This document shows positions 1-7,077 of a DNA stretch of 11,666 nt, piece by piece (the stretch's first letter is position 1; every line of letters starts with the position of its first letter). A program made the position numbers and the translations under genes. The DNA comes from Candidatus Methylomirabilota bacterium. Lineage in GTDB: Bacteria; Methylomirabilota; Methylomirabilia; Rokubacteriales; CSP1-6. The notes under the pieces were generated by a model. It saw only the letters and a list, made by a program, of their open reading frames with translations, had not been told where the DNA came from and did not search any database. The stretch spans positions 1-11,666 of the forward strand of contig JBKPAK010000058.1 in NCBI GenBank assembly GCA_046726415.1, in the 5' to 3' direction.

Positions 1-133
1 CCAAGGCGTGTCGGTCGAGCAGGAGGCCCGGCGTATCCTCGCCGAGGGCACGCGGGGCCAGCCGCGCGGAGATCGCCGCCCGGGCCGCCGGCGGAGCGCG
101 TCGGCGTCGCGATCTGGACCGGTCGCTGACGGC
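1..133 (+). pseudogene. Degenerate, internally deleted copy of the fitA-like/vapC TA locus (5' end outside window)
   Basis: By manual alignment, 1-55 matches 7151-7205 (51/55), 61-90 matches 7210-7239 (28/30) after a +1 indel at 56-60, and 91-133 matches 7751-7793 (40/43), the vapC 3' end (AERVGVAIWTGR-TGA). The three peptide blocks lie in three different frames. Confidence 0.9.
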
Positions 134-209
134 CCTCGTGGAGCAGAAGCGGGCGCGGCCGGAGCCGGAACGAAGGGGTGAGCGGCGAAGAACATCCGCC
201 GTCCGGTCA

Positions 210-1049
210 TCAAACCTCGATGATGTGCTTCTGGTAGTCCGGGTCGGGGCGAAAGACACGACGCATCGCCCTGTTTTCTATCTTTTCCTGCAGCCAGTCC
301 ACCGGCGCGTACTGAGTGCGCGTGGCGATCGACTCCTCTCCGAACAGCTGTGAGCGGATGGCGCGCTCCGTGGTCAGGCGCGCGGAATGTCGCCCCAGCC
401 AGAGGAGGAACGCCCGCTCTTCGACCCCTTTCAGGAGCACGAGATCGATCCCGCGTAGGGACGGGTACGGCGAGGTGAGTGGGAGCGCGTAGGGAGCCCG
501 CAAGAAGTTGCGCAAGGTTCGCTCGTCGGCATTGGCGGCGGGCGGTGACCCCGTGAATACGCGATGCCAGTAGGCGAAGGCGTCTTGTACCTGCTGACGA
601 CCCCACAGCCGCTTGAGCGCGGCGGGGGAATCCTCTAGGATCTCGACCCGATACGATCCGAAGAACTGGTACCAGTCGGGTGCGCTGACCCGTGGTCGCT
701 TGCCGCCACCGAAGAACGCCTGGGCCGCCCGGAGGTACGAGAGATCTTGGCCCACGCGACAGCCCTGGATTTCGATCCACGAGCTTGACGTGATGCCCCG
801 GCGCATGGCGTCCAGGTTCTTGACGAACTGTGGGAGGCGATCTCGGAGGAGGGCGTGGATCGCCCTGGTGGGACTGCCCTCGACATGGAATCGGCTGCCG
901 CGAAGCGCGACCGTGCTCCCGCCGAACGCGATGCGCGGGGCGAGCCGTCGCGCCGCCCGCGACAGGAGCGTGAAATCCGCCTGGATCGGCGTGCCGCCGC
1001 CACCCACGACGGCGGAGCCCAGGAGGATCGTGTTTCGATACTGCATCAT
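210..1049 (-). CDS. C-terminal part of the DUF4157 protein (or a translationally coupled separate gene) with a DUF4347/caspase-fold-like IEIQGCRVG motif
   Basis: Only the part of ORF 210..1520 from about AEWRMMQY onward reads as protein-like. It contains WIEIQGCRVGQ (Cys codon 759-761) and RVSAPDW. ATG at 1049 and ATG at 1046 overlap the TGA of the upstream ORF. Confidence 0.7.
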   Translation of the reverse strand: MMQYRNTILLGSAVVGGGGTPIQADFTLLSRAARRLAPRIAFGGSTVALRGSRFHVEGSPTRAIHALLRDRLPQFVKNLDAMRRGITSSSWIEIQGCRVGQDLSYLRAAQAFFGGGKRPRVSAPDWYQFFGSYRVEILEDSPAALKRLWGRQQVQDAFAYWHRVFTGSPPAANADERTLRNFLRAPYALPLTSPYPSLRGIDLVLLKGVEERAFLLWLGRHSARLTTERAIRSQLFGEESIATRTQYAPVDWLQEKIENRAMRRVFRPDPDYQKHIIEV

Positions 1050-2167
1050 GCGCCACTCCGCAGCGCGAGCCATTGGCGGTCCGATTCCAGCGCTCTCTCT
1101 GCCTCCTCCGGCATGGAGCCCGGGGCCGGGGCCACGGCCCCCTCCGCGAAGGCCCGCTCGGTCGCCGATCGAACCCACGCGCGCAAAAGAGGGTTGGCGG
1201 TGCCGCCCAGCCGACGGAAGATCGGTCCCGCCTGGGCATCGGCCCCCAAGAGGCCCGCCAGGTCTCCCTGATGGGCGATCTCCTCGGGAGAGTGATGCTC
1301 GAGGGCGGGTAGCTCGCCGGGGGTGTCGATCCTCCACATCCACTTGAAGACCGCCGGGTATCCGCCATTGATGAGCGCGATCTGCATCTCCAAGGGAGAG
1401 GAATGGGTCACGATAGTGACCCGCCCGATCTGCGGCATGCGGGCGAGATCGGCCACGATCTCCTCGATCGAATCGACCCCCGTCATGACGGGGCTGTAGC
1501 CCCAGCGTTCGAAGAACCATGCCTCGAGGTAATCAGGCGTGCCGTGCTTCGAGACATAGACCGGGTGGGACAGCAGTCGCGCGGCCCGGAGGGCCCCGGA
1601 GACGCGCGGCGGCCTTTGGGGGCCGAGGCGCATCACCGTGTCGCTGGCCTCCGCTTCGAGCGTTGCCGCACCGAGCCCCGCCCGCACCGACCCTGCGTCG
1701 AGACGCTCGGCGATGGGGATCGACCTCGGGACAGCGGGGCGACCGCCGTTGTACCACTGGGCCACGTGCACCAACTCGTGGGCGAGCAGGGAGAGCCCTT
1801 CCCCACGCGTTGGTGCGTAGGCGCTTCGACCGAAGACGATGTCCTCGCCGATCGTGTACGCGGCTGCGTCTCGGGCCTGCGCGGCCCGAGCAGCATGGTC
1901 ATCGGCGTGGATCCGCACCCGCTCGAAGCGCCATCCGAGGGTCGACTCCATCAGCGCGCGCACGGGCCGCGGGAGCGGCGCGGCGCGCCCGAGACCGGCG
2001 CGCGGGTCGGCCGGCGGGGAGTCCTGCGCGCGAGAACTGTTGAGCCACGCGCGGTCGGCTAACGCAGGCGAGAATGCCTCGCGTGGACGCGCCGGCGCGA
2101 AAAGGGATGGAGGTGCCGGCGCGCCACGGCTCGGCGAGAGCGGTGTGGCGACGGCGACGCGTCTCAC
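1046..2167 (-). CDS. DUF4157 (eCIS core domain) protein, N-terminal part
   Basis: Typical DUF4157 signature at about 1757-1976: LPRPVRALMESTLGWRFERVRIHAD..AAAYTIGEDIVF..YAP..LLAHELVHVAQ (HExxH). Start chosen at GTG 2167, which has GGGGA 9 nt upstream and a GTGA overlap with the upstream micro-ORF stop. The start is uncertain. Confidence 0.85.
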   Translation of the reverse strand: MRRVAVATPLSPSRGAPAPPSLFAPARPREAFSPALADRAWLNSSRAQDSPPADPRAGLGRAAPLPRPVRALMESTLGWRFERVRIHADDHAARAAQARDAAAYTIGEDIVFGRSAYAPTRGEGLSLLAHELVHVAQWYNGGRPAVPRSIPIAERLDAGSVRAGLGAATLEAEASDTVMRLGPQRPPRVSGALRAARLLSHPVYVSKHGTPDYLEAWFFERWGYSPVMTGVDSIEEIVADLARMPQIGRVTIVTHSSPLEMQIALINGGYPAVFKWMWRIDTPGELPALEHHSPEEIAHQGDLAGLLGADAQAGPIFRRLGGTANPLLRAWVRSATERAFAEGAVAPAPGSMPEEAERALESDRQWLALRSGA

Positions 2168-2276
2168 GATGTGATGTCCCCGGTCGTCGAGGCGAGGGCC
2201 GCCATGAGCGACGCGGCGCATTGCCCGCAGAACTTCACGTCCACCGGGTTCTCGTGCTCGCACGGGGACACTTCAT
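2164..2276 (-). pseudogene. Zinc-ribbon (CxxC..CxxC) micro-ORF with a 1-nt frameshift
   Basis: GGGAGG RBS, then ATG AAG TGT CCC CG|TGC GAG CAC GAG AAC. Adding one base near 2263 gives MKCPxCEHENPVDVKFCGQCAASLMAALASTTGDITS-stop. Not present in the ORF track. Confidence 0.75.
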
Positions 2277-2524
2277 CCAGGGCCTCCCGCCCGCTGCAGA
2301 GACCGATCGTGCCGCCCTACCCTAGTCGGGATGCTCCACGTGGGCAACGCCCCCGCGCTGGGAGGCGAGCCGGTGCCGACAGAGGGCACCCGATGAACAA
2401 GCGGCCTTTGTCGACGGAGTCGCCGGGCGCGCCGAGGAGCCGGGACTCGGCCTCATCGCCGCAGGCGCGTTCTCGGCGCCCTACGAGGACGTGGAACCGA
2501 AGAGAACGTAGGGCCCGCGCGCGC

Positions 2525-2553
2525 TTGACGGCCCCGGTCTCGTGTGCGAGAAC
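2525..2553 (+). promoter_or_regulatory. Possible sigma70-type promoter for the VOC/dioxygenase operon
   Basis: TTGACG (2525-2530), 17-nt spacer ending in TGc, then a weak -10 GAGAAC (2548-2553). Confidence 0.3.
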
Positions 2554-2629
2554 CTGGGCCCAGGTGACGGCGTCCGGGCGTGAACACTCGCGGCAGGGTC
2601 GGCCTGCATACGACGGGAAGGAGAGAGCC

Positions 2630-3058
2630 ATGGCGAGGATCAAACACATCGCACTGTCGACCGACGATCCCGTGAAGACCGCGGAGTTCTACAAGGATGT
2701 CTTCGGGCTGACGGAGCTGCGCCGAGAGCCCACCGACACCGGCGCCGAGGGCGTCTGGTTGAGTGACGGCTACATCTACTTCGCCATCCTCAAGTACGGC
2801 GGCGAGGACACGCCCAACCTCGGGGAAGGCCCGTCCACCGTCAAGGGCATTCACCACATCGGCTTCTACGTGGACGATCTCGAGGCGACGCGGACCTCGC
2901 TCGAGACGGCGAGCTGCACCGAGTGCCCGGGAAGCACCAAGGTCAACCGGAAGTTCAAGGGTCCTGACGGCGTCATGATCGACGTGCGGGCCAGGGGCTG
3001 GGACGAGCAGATCAAGGCCCGCATGCCGCTGTATCAGCTGACCCCGGCCTCCGCGTGA
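2630..3058 (+). CDS. VOC (glyoxalase/bleomycin resistance/dioxygenase) family protein, 142 aa
   Basis: AAGGAG RBS before ATG 2630. VOC motifs IKHIAL..TAEFYKDVFGL, GIHHIGFYVDDL and FKGPDGVMID. Confidence 0.9.
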   Translation: MARIKHIALSTDDPVKTAEFYKDVFGLTELRREPTDTGAEGVWLSDGYIYFAILKYGGEDTPNLGEGPSTVKGIHHIGFYVDDLEATRTSLETASCTECPGSTKVNRKFKGPDGVMIDVRARGWDEQIKARMPLYQLTPASA

Positions 3059-3086
3059 ACACCCGTGGGCGAGGGGAGGACACCCG

Positions 3087-4142
3087 ATGTTGAAACTCTC
3101 GGACATCAAGTCTTCGGACGCGGAGCTGCAGGAGTACTACGCGCAGCTGCGATCGCAGCACGTGACGCCCGCGTGGATCGGCGGCGGGATCAGCCTCGAG
3201 CCCAAGAGCAAGGCCGTCCCGTACGTGTGGCACTGGCGCGAGCTGCGCTCCCAGGCGATGCGAGCGGCCCAGCTCGTCGGCACCGAGCAGGCCGAGCGGC
3301 GGGTGCTCCGGCTGACGAACCCCGAGCTGGCGGGCGTGTCGGCGAGCAACACCATGGTCGCTAACATCCAGATCGTGATGCCGGGCGAGATCGCGCGCGC
3401 CCATCGCCATTCCGCCTCGGCGCTGCGCCTGATCATCGAGGGCAAGGGCGGCTACACGGTCGTGAACGGCGACCGCATTCCCATGTCTCCGGGGGATCTC
3501 GTGCTGACTCCCAACTGGACGTGGCACGACCACGCCAACGACACCGATGCGCCGATGATCTGGCTCGACGGCCTGGACACCCCGCTGGTGCGGATGCTGG
3601 AGGCCGGGTTCTACGAGGAGTACTACAAGGAGATCCAGACCGTCGGGGAGGGCGTCGATCCGTCCTTCGCGAAGTATGGCGACGGGGGGCTGCGGCCGGC
3701 GTGGGAAGCGCCTCCCTCGGCGCGTTACTCGCCGTTGTGGCACTACCCGATGTCCCAGGCCCGCGCCGCCCTAGAGCGTCTGGCCGCGGAGCACTCGGGC
3801 AGCCCGTTCGACGGCGTCATCCTCGAGTACACGAACCCGGTGACCGGCGGGCCCGCCATGCCGACCATCGCGTGCTACATCCAGCTGCTGCGCCCCGGCG
3901 CGCGGACCCAGGCGCACCGCCAGGTCGCCTGCACGAACTACCACGTGATCGAGGGCTCAGGTTACTCGGTGGTGGGCGGGCAGCAGCTCGACTGGGAGGA
4001 CAAGGACGTGTTCACGGTGCCCACCTGGACCTTCCGGGAGCATGTCAACAGCGGCCACCGTCCCGCCTTCCTGTTCAGCTTTACCGACGCGCCTGTGATG
4101 AAGGCGCTCGATCTCTACCGCGAGGAGACGAAGGCCCGATGA
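3087..4142 (+). CDS. gtdA: Gentisate 1,2-dioxygenase-like bicupin ring-cleavage dioxygenase
   Basis: GGAGG RBS. Motifs ERRVLRLTNP, PGEIARAHRHSASALRLIIEG, TPNWTWHDH, WLDGLDTP, LEYTNPVTGGPAMPTI and FSFTDAPV. The exact substrate is not determinable. Confidence 0.88.
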   Translation: MLKLSDIKSSDAELQEYYAQLRSQHVTPAWIGGGISLEPKSKAVPYVWHWRELRSQAMRAAQLVGTEQAERRVLRLTNPELAGVSASNTMVANIQIVMPGEIARAHRHSASALRLIIEGKGGYTVVNGDRIPMSPGDLVLTPNWTWHDHANDTDAPMIWLDGLDTPLVRMLEAGFYEEYYKEIQTVGEGVDPSFAKYGDGGLRPAWEAPPSARYSPLWHYPMSQARAALERLAAEHSGSPFDGVILEYTNPVTGGPAMPTIACYIQLLRPGARTQAHRQVACTNYHVIEGSGYSVVGGQQLDWEDKDVFTVPTWTFREHVNSGHRPAFLFSFTDAPVMKALDLYREETKAR

Positions 4143-4246
4143 AGGCGTCGTTCGCCGTTCCCGGCCCCGAGGGCGCGGCCTTCGAGCTGCGCGAGACCCC
4201 GGTGCCGGCGGCCGGCCTCGCGCTTATGGTGGACGAGGGCAGGTAA
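4139..4246 (+). pseudogene. Truncated N-terminus of an MDR (zinc-binding alcohol dehydrogenase/quinone oxidoreductase) family gene
   Basis: ATGA overlap with the dioxygenase stop. MKASFAVPGPEGAAFELRETPVPA resembles the MDR N-terminal pattern MKA....G....l.l.e.P.P, then diverges and stops after 35 aa. Confidence 0.55.
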
Positions 4247-4253
4247 CGAGCGA

Positions 4254-5514
4254 GTGAGCCGGCTCCCCGCGGCGCCCCCGGTCAGCACGAAGTTCGGGGC
4301 GCTGCACCATCGCGACTACCGCCGCTACTTCCTCTGGGCGCTCATCGGCATGACGGCCGAGAGCGTCGAGCACGTGGTCAGCTACTGGGTCATCTTCCAG
4401 TCCTTCCACTCGCCGACCCTCGGCGGGTTCGCCGTCATCGGCCACTGGGCGCCGTATCTGTTCTTCTCCGTGTACGCGGGCGCCCTCGCGGACCGGTACG
4501 ACTGCCGCAAGCTCATCCAGGTTGCCCAGGGGCTTCTGATGCTCGCGTCGCTCGCCTGGGCCGTGCTCTTCCTGACCGGCACACTGCGCGCCTGGCACGC
4601 GACCGTGATCCTGGCGATCCACGGGGCCGCCGGCGTGCTCGGGTCGCCGCCATTCCAGCTCATCGTCCACGACATCGTCGGTGCCGAGCATCTGCAGAGC
4701 GCGATCCGTCTCACCGCGATCAGCCGCTACTTCGCGATGCTGGTCGGGCCCGCCGTCGGGGGCGGGCTCATGCTCGTCCTCGGTCCCGGCGTGTCGCTGC
4801 TCGTCAACGTGCTGCTGTACCTGCCGCTCATCCTGTTCCTCTTCCGCCTGCCCTACACGGGGCACGCGGGCGAGGGGGAGGGGCCGCGGCAGGCGCCGCG
4901 CTTCAGTTTCGCGGAGGCGCGCCGGCTCCTCTCCGAGGTGAGCACCGAGCCGCGGATCATCCGAATGGTCGTGTTGGCCGGAGCGACGTCGCTCTTCGTG
5001 GGCAGCGCGTTCCAGGCACAGATGCCGGAATTCGCGCACCATCACGGCTCCGAGGAGGCCGACGTCTGGTACAGCGTGCTCTTCGGCGCCAACGCGGCCG
5101 GCGCCGTGATCGGCGCGCTGCTGCTGGAAAGCGTCACCGTCCTCCGCGGGGGGGGCGCGCGCGGCGATCGTGTGCGCTGTGATCTGGGGAACCGTGATGG
5201 CGATCTTCCCGCTCGCCCACAGCTACGCGGCGTCGGTGGCGCTGCTGGTGCTGGCTGGCATCTTCAACATCGCCTTCACGTCCATGGCGCAGGCGATCGT
5301 TCAGGTCCTGGCCCCGCCCCGGCTCCGGGGTCGCGTCGTCGGGCTCTTCAACACGTCGATGCTCGGGCTCCGGACGACCAGCGGCGTGACGGTCGGCGTC
5401 CTGGGCGCCCTGATCGGCGTCGAATGGTCGCTCGCGCTGAGCGCCTCGGCCGTGGTGCTGGTCGCCCTCGGCCTGCTCGTCGCCGACGTCCGCGCGCGCC
5501 CGTTGGACTCCTAA
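4254..5514 (+). CDS. MFS transporter (EntS/DUF894-like), frameshifted at the G8 tract 5148-5155
   Basis: Multiple hydrophobic helices, AGALADRYDCRKL motif A and APPRLRGRVVG. The two halves (ORFs 4254.. and 5170..5514) join as LRGGARAAIVCAVIWG if one G is removed. Either a pseudogene or a sequencing error. Confidence 0.88.
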
Positions 5515-5642
5515 ACCGGCTTGTCCCGCCTGGCCGTTGCTCCCTCGACGTCGAGGCGTACCCGTTGAACGAGAGGGCCGGAGTACGCGGCGTGGGGACC
5601 GCGCGTAGGAGCTGGGTGAAACAAAGGTAAGATCGGGTCACC

Positions 5643-6851
5643 GTGGAAGACGCCTCCAGCGAGCTGCGCCTGCTCCTCCAGGGCATGTGCTGCGACTACC
5701 TCCTGTTTCGCCACCTCGACGAGGGCGTGCCGCCCGAGGCCATCCGGATCAGGCAGGAGGTGTCCCTCGGCGCCGGCGCCTTCGCGGACATCGAGGTCCG
5801 CGCGGGCCAGGCGCCGCCGTACTTCGTCGAGGTCGATACGGGCTACTCCCGCGATCGCCTGCTCGAGAGCATCCGGCGAAAGTACGGCAAGCCCGTCCCC
5901 GGGACCGACGGCGCTGCGCGGGTCGTGGTGGCCGCCGACGAGAGCGTCCTCGGCGACCGGACGAGTGTCGAGCGTTTGCTGCGCGAGGCCCTGCGGCCCG
6001 GGCTGGCCCTCGAGATCTGGGACGAGCGCCACCTGCTCCGGCTCCTCGGTGAGCGCTTTGGTGTCTCCCTCAGCGCGCTGGGTGAGGACGACCTCCTCGC
6101 CCTGCGAAACGCCGTCGACCACGCCAAGGGCTCCTATGCCTTCGGCGACGGGTTCCAGAACGACCCCCTCCAGGCCACCCTCCTCTGGCACCTTGCCTTC
6201 TGGCGCGTGCGCCGGCTTCGCGAGGCCGGTCGGATCCTGCCCCGTTCGATCCTGCCGCCCGGCCTGTACCGGGATGTCGTGGTCGTCATGGCCGACCTCT
6301 GCTCATACTCGAGCTACGTGCGCGACACGCGCGACGAGGCGGTCTCGCGCCGCTCGCTGACGTCGTTCGCCTCCAGGACGCGCCACCGTGTCGTCAACGA
6401 CAGCGGGATGCTCTACCAGTTCCTCGGAGACTCGGTGGTCGGGCTCTTCGGCATCCCCGAGGCGCCGCCGGCATACGCGGAGCAAGCGGTGGAGTGCGCA
6501 CGCGGACTGGTCGACATCGGCGCCTCGGTCGCGACCGAGTGGCAGCGCCAGATCGACCAGATCCAGCCGGCCGCCGGGGTGCACGTCTCCATGACCCTCG
6601 GCGACCTCCAGGTGCTCTCGCTCCGACCCCTGAGCCGCACGCACATGGGCGTCATCGGCGACTCCATCAACCTCGCCGACCGCCTCAACACGGCCGCTGG
6701 ATGCGACGAGATCGTAGTGAGCAACACGCTGTACCAGCGCCTGCCCGACACTCTCCGCGCGGAGTTCCAGGAAGTGCCGCCGGTCGAGGCGAAGAACATC
6801 GGCCGGATCCGCGCCTGGAAGCTCGGCCCGCTCCGCCCCCCCGTCGGGTAA
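5643..6851 (+). CDS. Class III adenylate/guanylate cyclase-domain protein with an N-terminal PD-(D/E)xK nuclease-like domain
   Basis: The C-terminal half has VVMADLCSYS, QFLGDSVVGLFG, VIGDSINLADRL, IVVS and EAKNIG. The N-terminus has QEVSL..FADIEV..FVEVDTG and LEIWDERHLLRLL. The cyclase call is strong and the nuclease-fold call is moderate. Confidence 0.85.
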   Translation: MEDASSELRLLLQGMCCDYLLFRHLDEGVPPEAIRIRQEVSLGAGAFADIEVRAGQAPPYFVEVDTGYSRDRLLESIRRKYGKPVPGTDGAARVVVAADESVLGDRTSVERLLREALRPGLALEIWDERHLLRLLGERFGVSLSALGEDDLLALRNAVDHAKGSYAFGDGFQNDPLQATLLWHLAFWRVRRLREAGRILPRSILPPGLYRDVVVVMADLCSYSSYVRDTRDEAVSRRSLTSFASRTRHRVVNDSGMLYQFLGDSVVGLFGIPEAPPAYAEQAVECARGLVDIGASVATEWQRQIDQIQPAAGVHVSMTLGDLQVLSLRPLSRTHMGVIGDSINLADRLNTAAGCDEIVVSNTLYQRLPDTLRAEFQEVPPVEAKNIGRIRAWKLGPLRPPVG

Positions 6852-7034
6852 GTGCCGGTCGGAGCAGGCCCGCCTTTTCGTCCGTCCCAGCAGAAGTCTC
6901 AATCGCTGCAATCACCACAGTCACTGCCTTGCCCTCGATCTCGGTGTCGACTTCGAGGTGCGCTTGGCGCGAAGGCCGGTGCGACCGGATCTCGTGAAGC
7001 CGTGGCTGATCCCGCCCGCAGCGCATTTAATATT

Positions 7035-7077
7035 TGATATCACGTTGCGCTAGCCCTGATAGCATTATACGATAGCA
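7035..7077 (+). promoter_or_regulatory. TA promoter with FitA-type operator half-sites
   Basis: AT-rich patch containing -35 TTGCGC (7045-7050), a 17-nt spacer and -10 TACGAT (7068-7073). Boxes are TGATATCA (7035-7042), TGATAGCA (7057-7064) and CGATAGCA (7070-7077). Confidence 0.7.

Follow-up and report, generated by a model that had tools for sequence, protein, structure and literature searches.

Background

The layout of regulated class III nucleotide cyclases, an N-terminal input domain followed by a helical linker and a cyclase, is found in the class IIIb enzymes CyaC of Spirulina (PDB 1wc0) and Cya2 of Synechocystis (PDB 2w01), and it is also the layout of the gene described in the present study. 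This gene lies at positions 5643-6851 (+ strand) of a stretch of 11,666 nucleotides from a Candidatus Methylomirabilota bacterium of the order Rokubacteriales (assembly GCA_046726415.1, contig JBKPAK010000058.1, positions 1 to 11,666; hereafter called the window); it starts with GTG and encodes a protein of 402 amino acids (aa). CyaC and Cya2 are the best sequence and structure matches of its cyclase domain, with the same catalytic fold, the same four catalytic residues and TM-scores of 0.80-0.83. The input domain differs: in place of GAF, PAS, CHASE or a similar domain, the window protein has a nuclease-fold domain belonging to no Pfam family. The base-specifying pair differs as well, being Q259/G336 in the window protein, K/T in CyaC and E/G in Cya2.

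Several other described systems resemble the window protein in part. First, the PD-(D/E)xK nucleases of the AF1548, NucS, Mrr-like and Can2-Card1 types have the alpha-beta-beta-beta-alpha-beta core in common with its N-terminal domain (Z 8.0-10.8 over 105-124 aligned residues), but sequence identity is just 7-14%, the window protein has Asp in place of the motif Lys, and the domain of its family is joined to a cyclase-homology domain in every complete protein seen. Second, the Pycsar defence system consists of the PycC cyclase and a transmembrane or TIR effector activated by cyclic nucleoside monophosphate (cNMP). In both cases the cyclase is of class III type and has no readable base specificity, but no effector is adjacent to the window gene or to its relatives, and the PycC structure 7r65 is a weak match (E 1.3e-3, against 3.3e-14 for CyaC). 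Third, in comparison with the cyclic oligonucleotide-based antiphage signalling system (CBASS) with its Cap4/NucC-type effectors, neither a CD-NTase nor a SAVED or other cyclic-oligonucleotide-sensor family was detected in the protein or the window using Pfam and PADLOC, and Cap4 gave a low structural match to the N-terminal domain (Z 6.1). Fourth, Kaur et al. 2020 (PMC7159879) describe three-gene conflict systems, the vWA-MoxR (VMAP) ternary systems, in which a NaeI-type restriction endonuclease (REase) domain occurs with cNMP cyclases on the effectors that carry the vWA component. As in the window protein, a REase-fold domain and a cNMP cyclase are thus combined in one polypeptide, and these arrays are the nearest published architecture found, in a different setting: the window protein stands alone, and none of 146 neighbouring open reading frames (ORFs) of the family matched a vWA or MoxR family.

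The original prediction, made from the letters of the window, described the gene as a candidate single-gene cyclic-nucleotide defence or signalling system, with a signal generator and an effector (or, in brackets, a DNA-sensing input) in one polypeptide. Herein, we propose, as the reading that on balance is probably correct, that the nuclease-fold domain is the regulatory input of a soluble dimeric class III cyclase and acts through the helical linker. No description of a stand-alone two-domain family of this kind was found in a literature search lying outside subscription journals and supplements. Two candidates were considered, DUF2652 (PMC4886424) and the PAACC cyclase (bioRxiv 10.64898/2026.10.19.760177), and each is a different family.

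Domain architecture and fold

The protein is a soluble signalling enzyme with a nuclease-fold domain before a cyclase. In Pfam, the cyclase domain is the sole match, with no transmembrane, PAS, GAF, REC, ATPase or TPR module, and the full protein has no match in NCBIfam. The ORF and residue positions given in the original prediction were exact, and its description of a complete cyclase free of these modules was borne out.

Residues 1-140 (5643..6062; this and all features of the gene lie on the + strand) form the N-terminal domain. AlphaFold2 models of the full-length protein (pLDDT 87.8, pTM 0.89) and of the domain alone (pLDDT 92.0) place helices at residues 4-26, 70-81, 106-116 and 128-139 and strands at residues 34-43, 46-54, 60-65, 93-98 and 122-127, in the order alpha-beta-beta-beta-alpha-beta-alpha-beta-alpha. 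The first acidic nuclease-type residue, D49 (5787-5789, in 'FADI'), lies on strand 2 of the models, and E63-V-D65 (5829..5837, with E63 at 5829-5831 and D65 at 5835-5837) lies on strand 3, at the ExK position with Asp for Lys. A conserved pair, K80-Y81 (5880..5885), is found in the helix after strand 3, and strand 5 carries L123-E128 ('LEIWDE', 6009..6026) with the conserved residues E124, W126 and E128; residues 123-135 read LEIWDERHLLRLL.

The domain model was compared with 48,161 PDB representatives using VIA-align, and ten chains were obtained at Z >= 8. The best was AF1548 (1y88; Z 10.8, root-mean-square deviation (rmsd) 2.7, 112 residues), followed by Cdn1 (8z4i; Z 9.3), VC1899 (1xmx; 9.1), R.BspD6I (2p14; 9.0), Can2 (7bdv; 8.8), FokI (2fok; 8.3), Card1 (6wxw; 8.2), a subunit of the African swine fever virus (ASFV) RNA polymerase (8q3b_E; 8.1), N.BspD6I (2ewf; 8.1) and NucS (2vld; 8.0); below Z 8, the list consists mainly of restriction enzymes. 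Because models without a true match often reach a best Z of 7-8, the assignment is based on the Z of 10.8 together with the location of the motif on the right strands, and on these models residues 1-140 are confidently assigned to the PD-(D/E)xK (restriction-endonuclease-like) fold, in line with the nuclease fold first suggested for this domain. Foldseek agreed more weakly (SfsA, 4.2e-4; EcoT38I, 7.9e-4).

At the level of sequence families, the domain has no match in Pfam, PADLOC or PHROG. The nearest family is PF18154 (pPIWI_RE_REase), which matches seven of 30 relatives, all under the gathering cut-off of 26.1 bits (best E 2.8e-4), and does not match the domain of the window itself; a search of 251 genomes of the phylum with PF18154 gave no match, and the control genomes gave none either. 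Among the N-terminal domains of 30 relatives searched against PHROGs, a single member had a single match (E 0.0076). In a feature-based search of the ESM Atlas, the nearest clusters carry PDDEXK_3, Mrr_cat_2 and MunI at no more than 0.84, below the level at which the tool regards a match as more than a lead. A homodimer prediction for residues 1-180 (score 0.00, mark 0.42) counts neither way.

The linker comprises residues 148-205 (6084..6257), with predicted helices at 148-170, 175-183, 186-194 and 200-203, and ends in R201-x-x-L204-x-P206-G207 just before the cyclase. In an alignment of 27 sequences of the window's clade (A1), R201, L204 and P206 are invariant and G207 is nearly so. The PDB cyclase matches begin within the linker (5o5k from residue 193, 4p2f from residue 194), as is expected of a transducer helix.

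The class III catalytic domain occupies residues 206-395 (6258..6827). Pfam PF00211 (Guanylate_cyc) covers residues 210-385 with a borderline score, 20.8 bits for the protein itself and 22.0 bits in a six-frame scan of the genome, the cut-off being 21.9; the A1 profile matched CyaC (1wc0) at E 3.3e-14, and Foldseek matched the domain to 5o5l at 7.3e-12 and to 1wc1_C with a TM-score of 0.83 and an rmsd of 2.9 over 197 columns. The residues D218 (6294..6296), which aligns with the Asp of 'FSDI' in CyaC, D263, N343 and R347 are invariant in the 27 members of A1 and align with the CyaC and Cya2 motifs; in class III enzymes, the residues at these places are the two metal-binding Asp residues (here D218 and D263) and the transition-state Asn and Arg (here N343 and R347). 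D263 closes the motif 'QFLGD' (Q259 to D263, 6417..6431), and N343-L-A-D-R347 lies at 6669..6683. The complete catalytic set is kept in 57 of 60 stand-alone members, and invariant columns number 50 of 190 in the cyclase compared with 12 of 145 in the N-terminal domain. The cyclase is complete and, judged from these residues, looks catalytically competent.

The base-specifying pair is Lys with Asp or Thr in canonical class III cyclases acting on ATP, and Glu with Cys, Ser or Gly in those acting on GTP. At the first of these places, Q259 aligns with K in CyaC ('dkfvGD') and with E in Cya2 ('deFMGD'); at the second, G336 (6648..6650) aligns with T in CyaC and with G in Cya2. Both residues are invariant in A1, and the pair matches neither canonical form, so that the product cannot be predicted from sequence. 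Six cyclase positions can all be scored in 34 representatives, and 17 of these have DQDGNR, the commonest signature in the family.

Conservation of the nuclease-type motif

In A1, E63 and K80 are invariant, and D49, D65 and E7 are nearly invariant; the conservation of E7 is confined to the window's clade and does not extend to the wider family. The alignment of N-terminal domains (A2) shows E128 as invariant and E124 and W126 as nearly invariant. Across the family, the pair K80-Y81 is KY in 108 and KF in nine of 135 scorable representatives. Positions 49, 63 and 65 could be scored in 130 of 150 representatives and read D-E-K in 90, D-E-D in 23 and otherwise in 17. Thus, the ExD form noticed earlier in place of ExK is a variant of the window's clade, and the family majority is D-E-K.

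To follow the history of this motif, a tree of 60 full-length sequences was built by a quick IQ-TREE search with SH-aLRT as the only support measure; besides the query, the sequences comprise 15 from the window's clade, 25 cluster representatives with lengths of 370-450 aa and 19 from genome loci. E63 is Glu in all 60 members and D49 is Asp in 58, so that the acidic residues are conserved in homologues, as the original prediction requires. At position 65, 34 members have Lys, 21 have Asp and the other five have A, M, T, V or C, a distribution that needs at least eight changes on the tree, four to six of them forced by well-supported branches. The window lies inside a well-supported D-E-D clade of Methylomirabilota, whose sister is formed by D-E-K sequences of Acidobacteriota. 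With D49 and E63 fixed and the Lys free to vary, the conservation of the domain is, as far as residue patterns can suggest, better matched by a site for binding or for a metal than by an obligate hydrolase. The only members of A1 that have Lys again at position 65, P0100 and P0103, have Glu and Ala, respectively, at position 49, which hints that the two positions may be coupled.

The rates of change are also uneven along the protein. In a comparison with a relative of 89% identity (L001), the ratio of nonsynonymous to synonymous substitution was 0.31 for the N-terminal domain, 0.11 for the linker and 0.14 for the cyclase; these are pairwise Nei-Gojobori estimates, more distant pairs being near saturation. 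Purifying selection acts on the N-terminal domain, which nevertheless changes more quickly than the cyclase, a common behaviour of input domains.

Fusions and family distribution

Eight representatives are longer than the two-domain unit. In seven of them the additional domain is N-terminal, being TIR_2 in three, a Ser/Thr kinase in three and FHA in one; the eighth has a C-terminal kinase. None of the seven TIR and kinase fusions retains all four catalytic residues of the cyclase. In the TIR fusions, R347 is changed to Q (P0146), S (P0173) or A (P0235); in the kinase fusions, R347 is changed to L in P0150, to V in P0141 together with N343 to H, and to E in P0175 (C-terminal kinase), and in P0132 the changes are N343 to Q and D218 to N. 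Six of these seven proteins retain the D-E-K triad, and the FHA fusion keeps both the triad and all of the cyclase catalytic residues. The three TIR domains keep a Glu at what would be the place of the catalytic Glu of bacterial TIR NADases. That cyclase chemistry lapses once another output enzyme is attached suggests that the constant job of the two-domain unit is something other than cNMP synthesis. The N-terminal domain is read as an input mainly because the fusions lose cyclase residues but keep the two-domain module. In a metagenome scan for TIR fusions, one of 15 loci reached the TIR part, on a contig of 4.4 kb (L085); there the gene is split into two ORFs (415-1065 and 1171-2121, within L085:415-2121, + strand), which suggests a frameshift, a stop or an assembly error.

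The family extends well beyond the phylum of the window. A word-indexed search gave at least 558 homologues at E <= 0.001, of which the best 120 are nearly all of about 400 aa; they are named in their sources merely as 'class 3 adenylate cyclase', and among the matches listed the closest named ones come from Candidatus Rokubacteria or Methylomirabilota. In species-representative genomes, near-full homologues (from residues 2-45 to about 395) with 40-58% identity occur in seven phyla besides Methylomirabilota, including Acidobacteriota, Planctomycetota, Verrucomicrobiota, Armatimonadota and Pseudomonadota. When residues 1-180 alone were searched exhaustively with HMMER against 1.84 billion cluster representatives, 189 matches were obtained at E <= 0.001, and every complete protein examined among them carries the cyclase-homology domain, so that the two domains form an obligate pair. 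Many of the matches of 100-260 aa look like fragments from contig ends, and several of them run into the first strand of the cyclase.

The genome of the window itself (7.6 Mb, 98% complete) contains 53 matches to PF00211, of which this gene is the weakest, and 13 matches to cNMP-binding domains, with the N-terminal domain present in one copy. The organism thus has a very large repertoire for cNMP signalling, of which this gene is one divergent member. Many of the 53 cyclase-domain matches lie in open frames of 1,100-1,300 aa.

The stretch is contained in soil metagenome runs. In the sole covering run that is recorded as RNA, a contig of 258 bases (6415-6672, within the cyclase domain) with ten differences and a piece of 38 bases were found; the ten differences indicate that this soil metatranscriptome contig derives from a relative. 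The contig hints weakly at transcription of the family in soil and is no demonstration for this gene.

Genomic context

To compare the neighbourhoods of the family, 1,506 ORFs with a minimum length of 80 aa, taken from the window and 27 related loci, were searched all against all with BLAST. Apart from the gene itself and overlapping ORFs in other frames, no gene family was common to more than a few of these loci. In addition, 146 greedily chosen ORFs within 3.5 kb of the gene in 23 loci were scanned for known families, 11 of the 157 chosen having been dropped as contig-end pieces or by a size limit. They encode mostly transport, redox or metabolic, hydrolase and regulatory functions; no cNMP-binding, SAVED, CARF, transmembrane-effector, vWA or MoxR family, no VapBC pair and no complete defence system was found among them. 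At E <= 1e-8, PADLOC models matched five of the 146, an ABC ATPase, a Ser/Thr kinase, a NUDIX protein, a sigma-54 AAA protein and a UvrD with a tudor domain, all of them generic. The PycC models of PADLOC match the window cyclase at 1.7e-12, but they also match six of six unrelated class III cyclase domains used as controls, five of these more strongly (down to 5.8e-20), and the match is generic for that reason. A search of viral contigs in IMG/VR with two peptide patterns derived from A1 gave 22 pattern matches, none of which is a relative. Since the homologues show no association with defence islands in the loci compared, the feature chosen beforehand for judging the matter, the inference of a defence role fails on context, and neither the neighbouring genes nor the PycC match supports the single-gene defence system originally suggested.

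Within the window, the cyclase gene is preceded by a major facilitator superfamily transporter gene (4254-5630), which ends 12 bases before it. As originally noted, a VapBC toxin-antitoxin pair follows: a FitA-like ribbon-helix-helix antitoxin gene (7083-7310, + strand) starts 232 bases after the cyclase gene and is overlapped by four bases by a PIN toxin gene (7307-7789, + strand), an arrangement typical of VapBC. A functional partnership of this pair with the cyclase finds no support, since no such cluster is common to the window and any of the 27 related loci; the adjacency is seen in the window alone, and L001 has a GFO/IDH/MocA oxidoreductase gene downstream. The other genes of the window encode a glyoxalase, a cupin, a solute-binding protein, a luciferase-like monooxygenase and a short-chain dehydrogenase. 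An ORF of 405 aa with an eCIS_core domain (PF13699, E 4.5e-26) lies upstream of the cyclase gene on the opposite strand (1046-2263, - strand), and no further contractile-injection genes were recognised within the window. A promoter and terminator scan of positions 5300-7400 yielded one promoter-like site, on the minus strand near 7092-7064, and no terminator, and is uninformative on operon structure.

Several observations were made at single loci. A recA gene lies divergently 39 bases from the cyclase ORF (L010:6571-7794, - strand), and recR (L011:6236-6835, - strand), ruvX (L019:1102-1554, - strand) and uvrD (L023:3336-5531, + strand) each lie within 3.5 kb of a family gene. A role in DNA damage was considered from these neighbours, which occur in four of 23 loci and in four lineages, and was rejected: four of 146 ORFs is near chance by a rough estimate. 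One BLAST cluster recurs within 8 kb of the gene in four loci (L009:4050-5507, L010:11151-13979, L022:1728-4346 and L026:4270-5949), and its member in L010 is a Ser/Thr kinase. In view of the kinase and FHA fusions, this cluster might be linked in function to the gene, but these phyla are rich in kinases.

Discussion

What the analysis shows is the fold, the motifs, how strictly these are conserved, how widely the family occurs and that no partner gene accompanies it in the loci compared. Herein, we propose a mechanism in which the window protein would act as a soluble homodimer, the catalytic domains pairing head-to-tail, as is the case in class III cyclases, to form the active sites. The N-terminal domain would serve as a sensor and not as a defence effector: it keeps the metal-type pair D49/E63 together with K80/Y81, and the strict need for a catalytic Lys appears to have been lost, with Asp in this place in the window's clade. 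The domain may bind a ligand in a metal-dependent manner, most likely a nucleic acid or a nucleotide, and binding would, through the linker, alter the geometry of the dimer and hence the output of cNMP. The product would presumably feed the large cNMP network of the organism. In other words, of the proposal that signal generator and effector are combined in one polypeptide, both folds are present, the effector role is not supported, and the alternative of a sensing input, which had been given in brackets, fits better.

Several points weigh against this mechanism. First, K80 hardly varies and, lying in the neighbouring helix, might take the part of the catalytic Lys. BamHI-type enzymes are active with an acidic residue at the Lys position. 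Because K80 is retained and because some active enzymes are acidic at this position, we do not call the domain dead, and even the ExD form may have nuclease activity. Second, the domain is acidic in all 27 members of the clade (net charge -3 to -12, isoelectric point 4.5-5.8), which makes strong non-specific binding of DNA less likely, and the ligand may be something other than a nucleic acid. Third, the loss of cyclase residues rests on seven proteins and probably about three independent events, so that the pattern is suggestive, not statistical. Fourth, the family is patchy. Among 61 genomes of the order, 34 being of high quality, four have it: that of the window, that of one congener (88% identity), one with a distant copy (33%) and one with a weak partial match. 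Together with the TIR fusions, this patchiness recalls defence genes, in which both features are common.

A bolder form of the sensor idea holds that the two-domain unit is a self-contained sensor of nucleic acid, whether foreign, damaged or structured, which has been wired to three outputs, namely its own cNMP synthesis, a TIR NADase and a Ser/Thr kinase. We consider this possible but rather unlikely. If true, the protein would be a one-protein device with nucleic acid as the input and a second messenger as the output, its logic being like that of cGAS or DisA with unrelated parts, and the ExD clade would bind without cutting. DisA is a DNA-integrity-scanning diadenylate cyclase (DAC) in which the synthase sits on a helical spine with a nucleic-acid-binding module that gates synthesis. 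The likeness to DisA would be one of logic alone, given that its DAC catalytic fold and its helix-hairpin-helix DNA-binding fold are unrelated to the window protein.

The nuclease could instead be the primary activity, for example one specific for a structure or for damage, with the cyclase-homology domain providing dimerisation and control by nucleotides and with cNMP synthesis as a secondary function. The canonical D-E-K triad in 90 of the 130 representatives, the conserved K80/Y81 and the retention of the triad in six of the seven fusions that have lost cyclase residues are all consistent with this explanation, as are the structural neighbours NucS/EndoMS and the FokI cleavage domain, which act as dimers, and the RecA, RecR, RuvX and UvrD genes near four of the 23 loci. 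On the other side, the cyclase set is kept in nearly all of the stand-alone members, and invariant columns are far more numerous in the cyclase than in the N-terminal domain; the Lys position is labile and is Asp in the window's clade; the four repair genes are estimated to be near the chance number; and the N-terminal domain is acidic, with no separate DNA-binding domain in the protein. A primary nuclease is thus unlikely.

A single-gene system of anti-phage defence or abortive infection, in which a cNMP alarm is raised on infection and the fused nuclease fold serves as effector or as sensor of phage DNA, is likewise doubtful. The fold and its acidic motif are real, the close structural matches include the cyclic-oligonucleotide-activated CRISPR ancillary nucleases Cdn1, Can2, Card1 and Can1 (Z 7.3-9.3), three relatives are TIR fusions, the distribution within the order is patchy, and a NaeI REase occurs with cNMP cyclases among the effectors of conflict systems (Kaur et al. 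2020, PMC7159879). Nevertheless, no gene is conserved beside the family gene in 27 loci, the 146 neighbouring ORFs contain no cNMP-binding, SAVED, CARF or transmembrane effector and only the five generic PADLOC matches, and Pfam recognises no cNMP-binding site that would couple the product to the protein's own nuclease-fold domain. Moreover, all six control cyclases match the PycC models, the two peptide patterns found no relative in viral contigs, and five of 60 members have A, M, T, V or C at the Lys position. The genomic context does not support a defence system.

A decayed nuclease fold whose function is purely structural (scaffolding or dimerisation), or which senses a divalent metal or a small molecule unrelated to nucleic acids, is the least probable explanation. 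In its favour are the acidic domain, the variable Lys position, the three carboxylates D49, E63 and D65 of the window's clade, which would suit a metal site, and the known structural use of inactive nuclease folds, as in the ASFV RNA-polymerase subunit (Z 8.1). Against it, D49, E63, K80, Y81, E124, W126 and E128 are almost always kept among representatives less than 50% identical, which exceeds the needs of a scaffold, and canonical ExK is still the majority state.

Conclusions

To a large extent, it is the signal sensed by its input domain that defines a class III cyclase. The regulated class III cyclase as such is known, and a nuclease-fold input in stand-alone form, belonging to no Pfam or NCBIfam family, is undescribed in the literature found. 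For defence surveys, PADLOC matches to PycC on lone cyclases should not be taken as evidence of Pycsar. The exchange of an active cyclase for a TIR or kinase output would be a natural experiment that reveals the sensor as the constant part of the protein. If the domain is merely a scaffold, the gene is one more of the 53 cyclase-domain matches of this genome. Should nucleic acid be what the domain senses, cNMP signalling in widespread soil phyla would be coupled directly to the state of DNA or RNA, through a compact module that combines a sensor with the synthesis of a second messenger.

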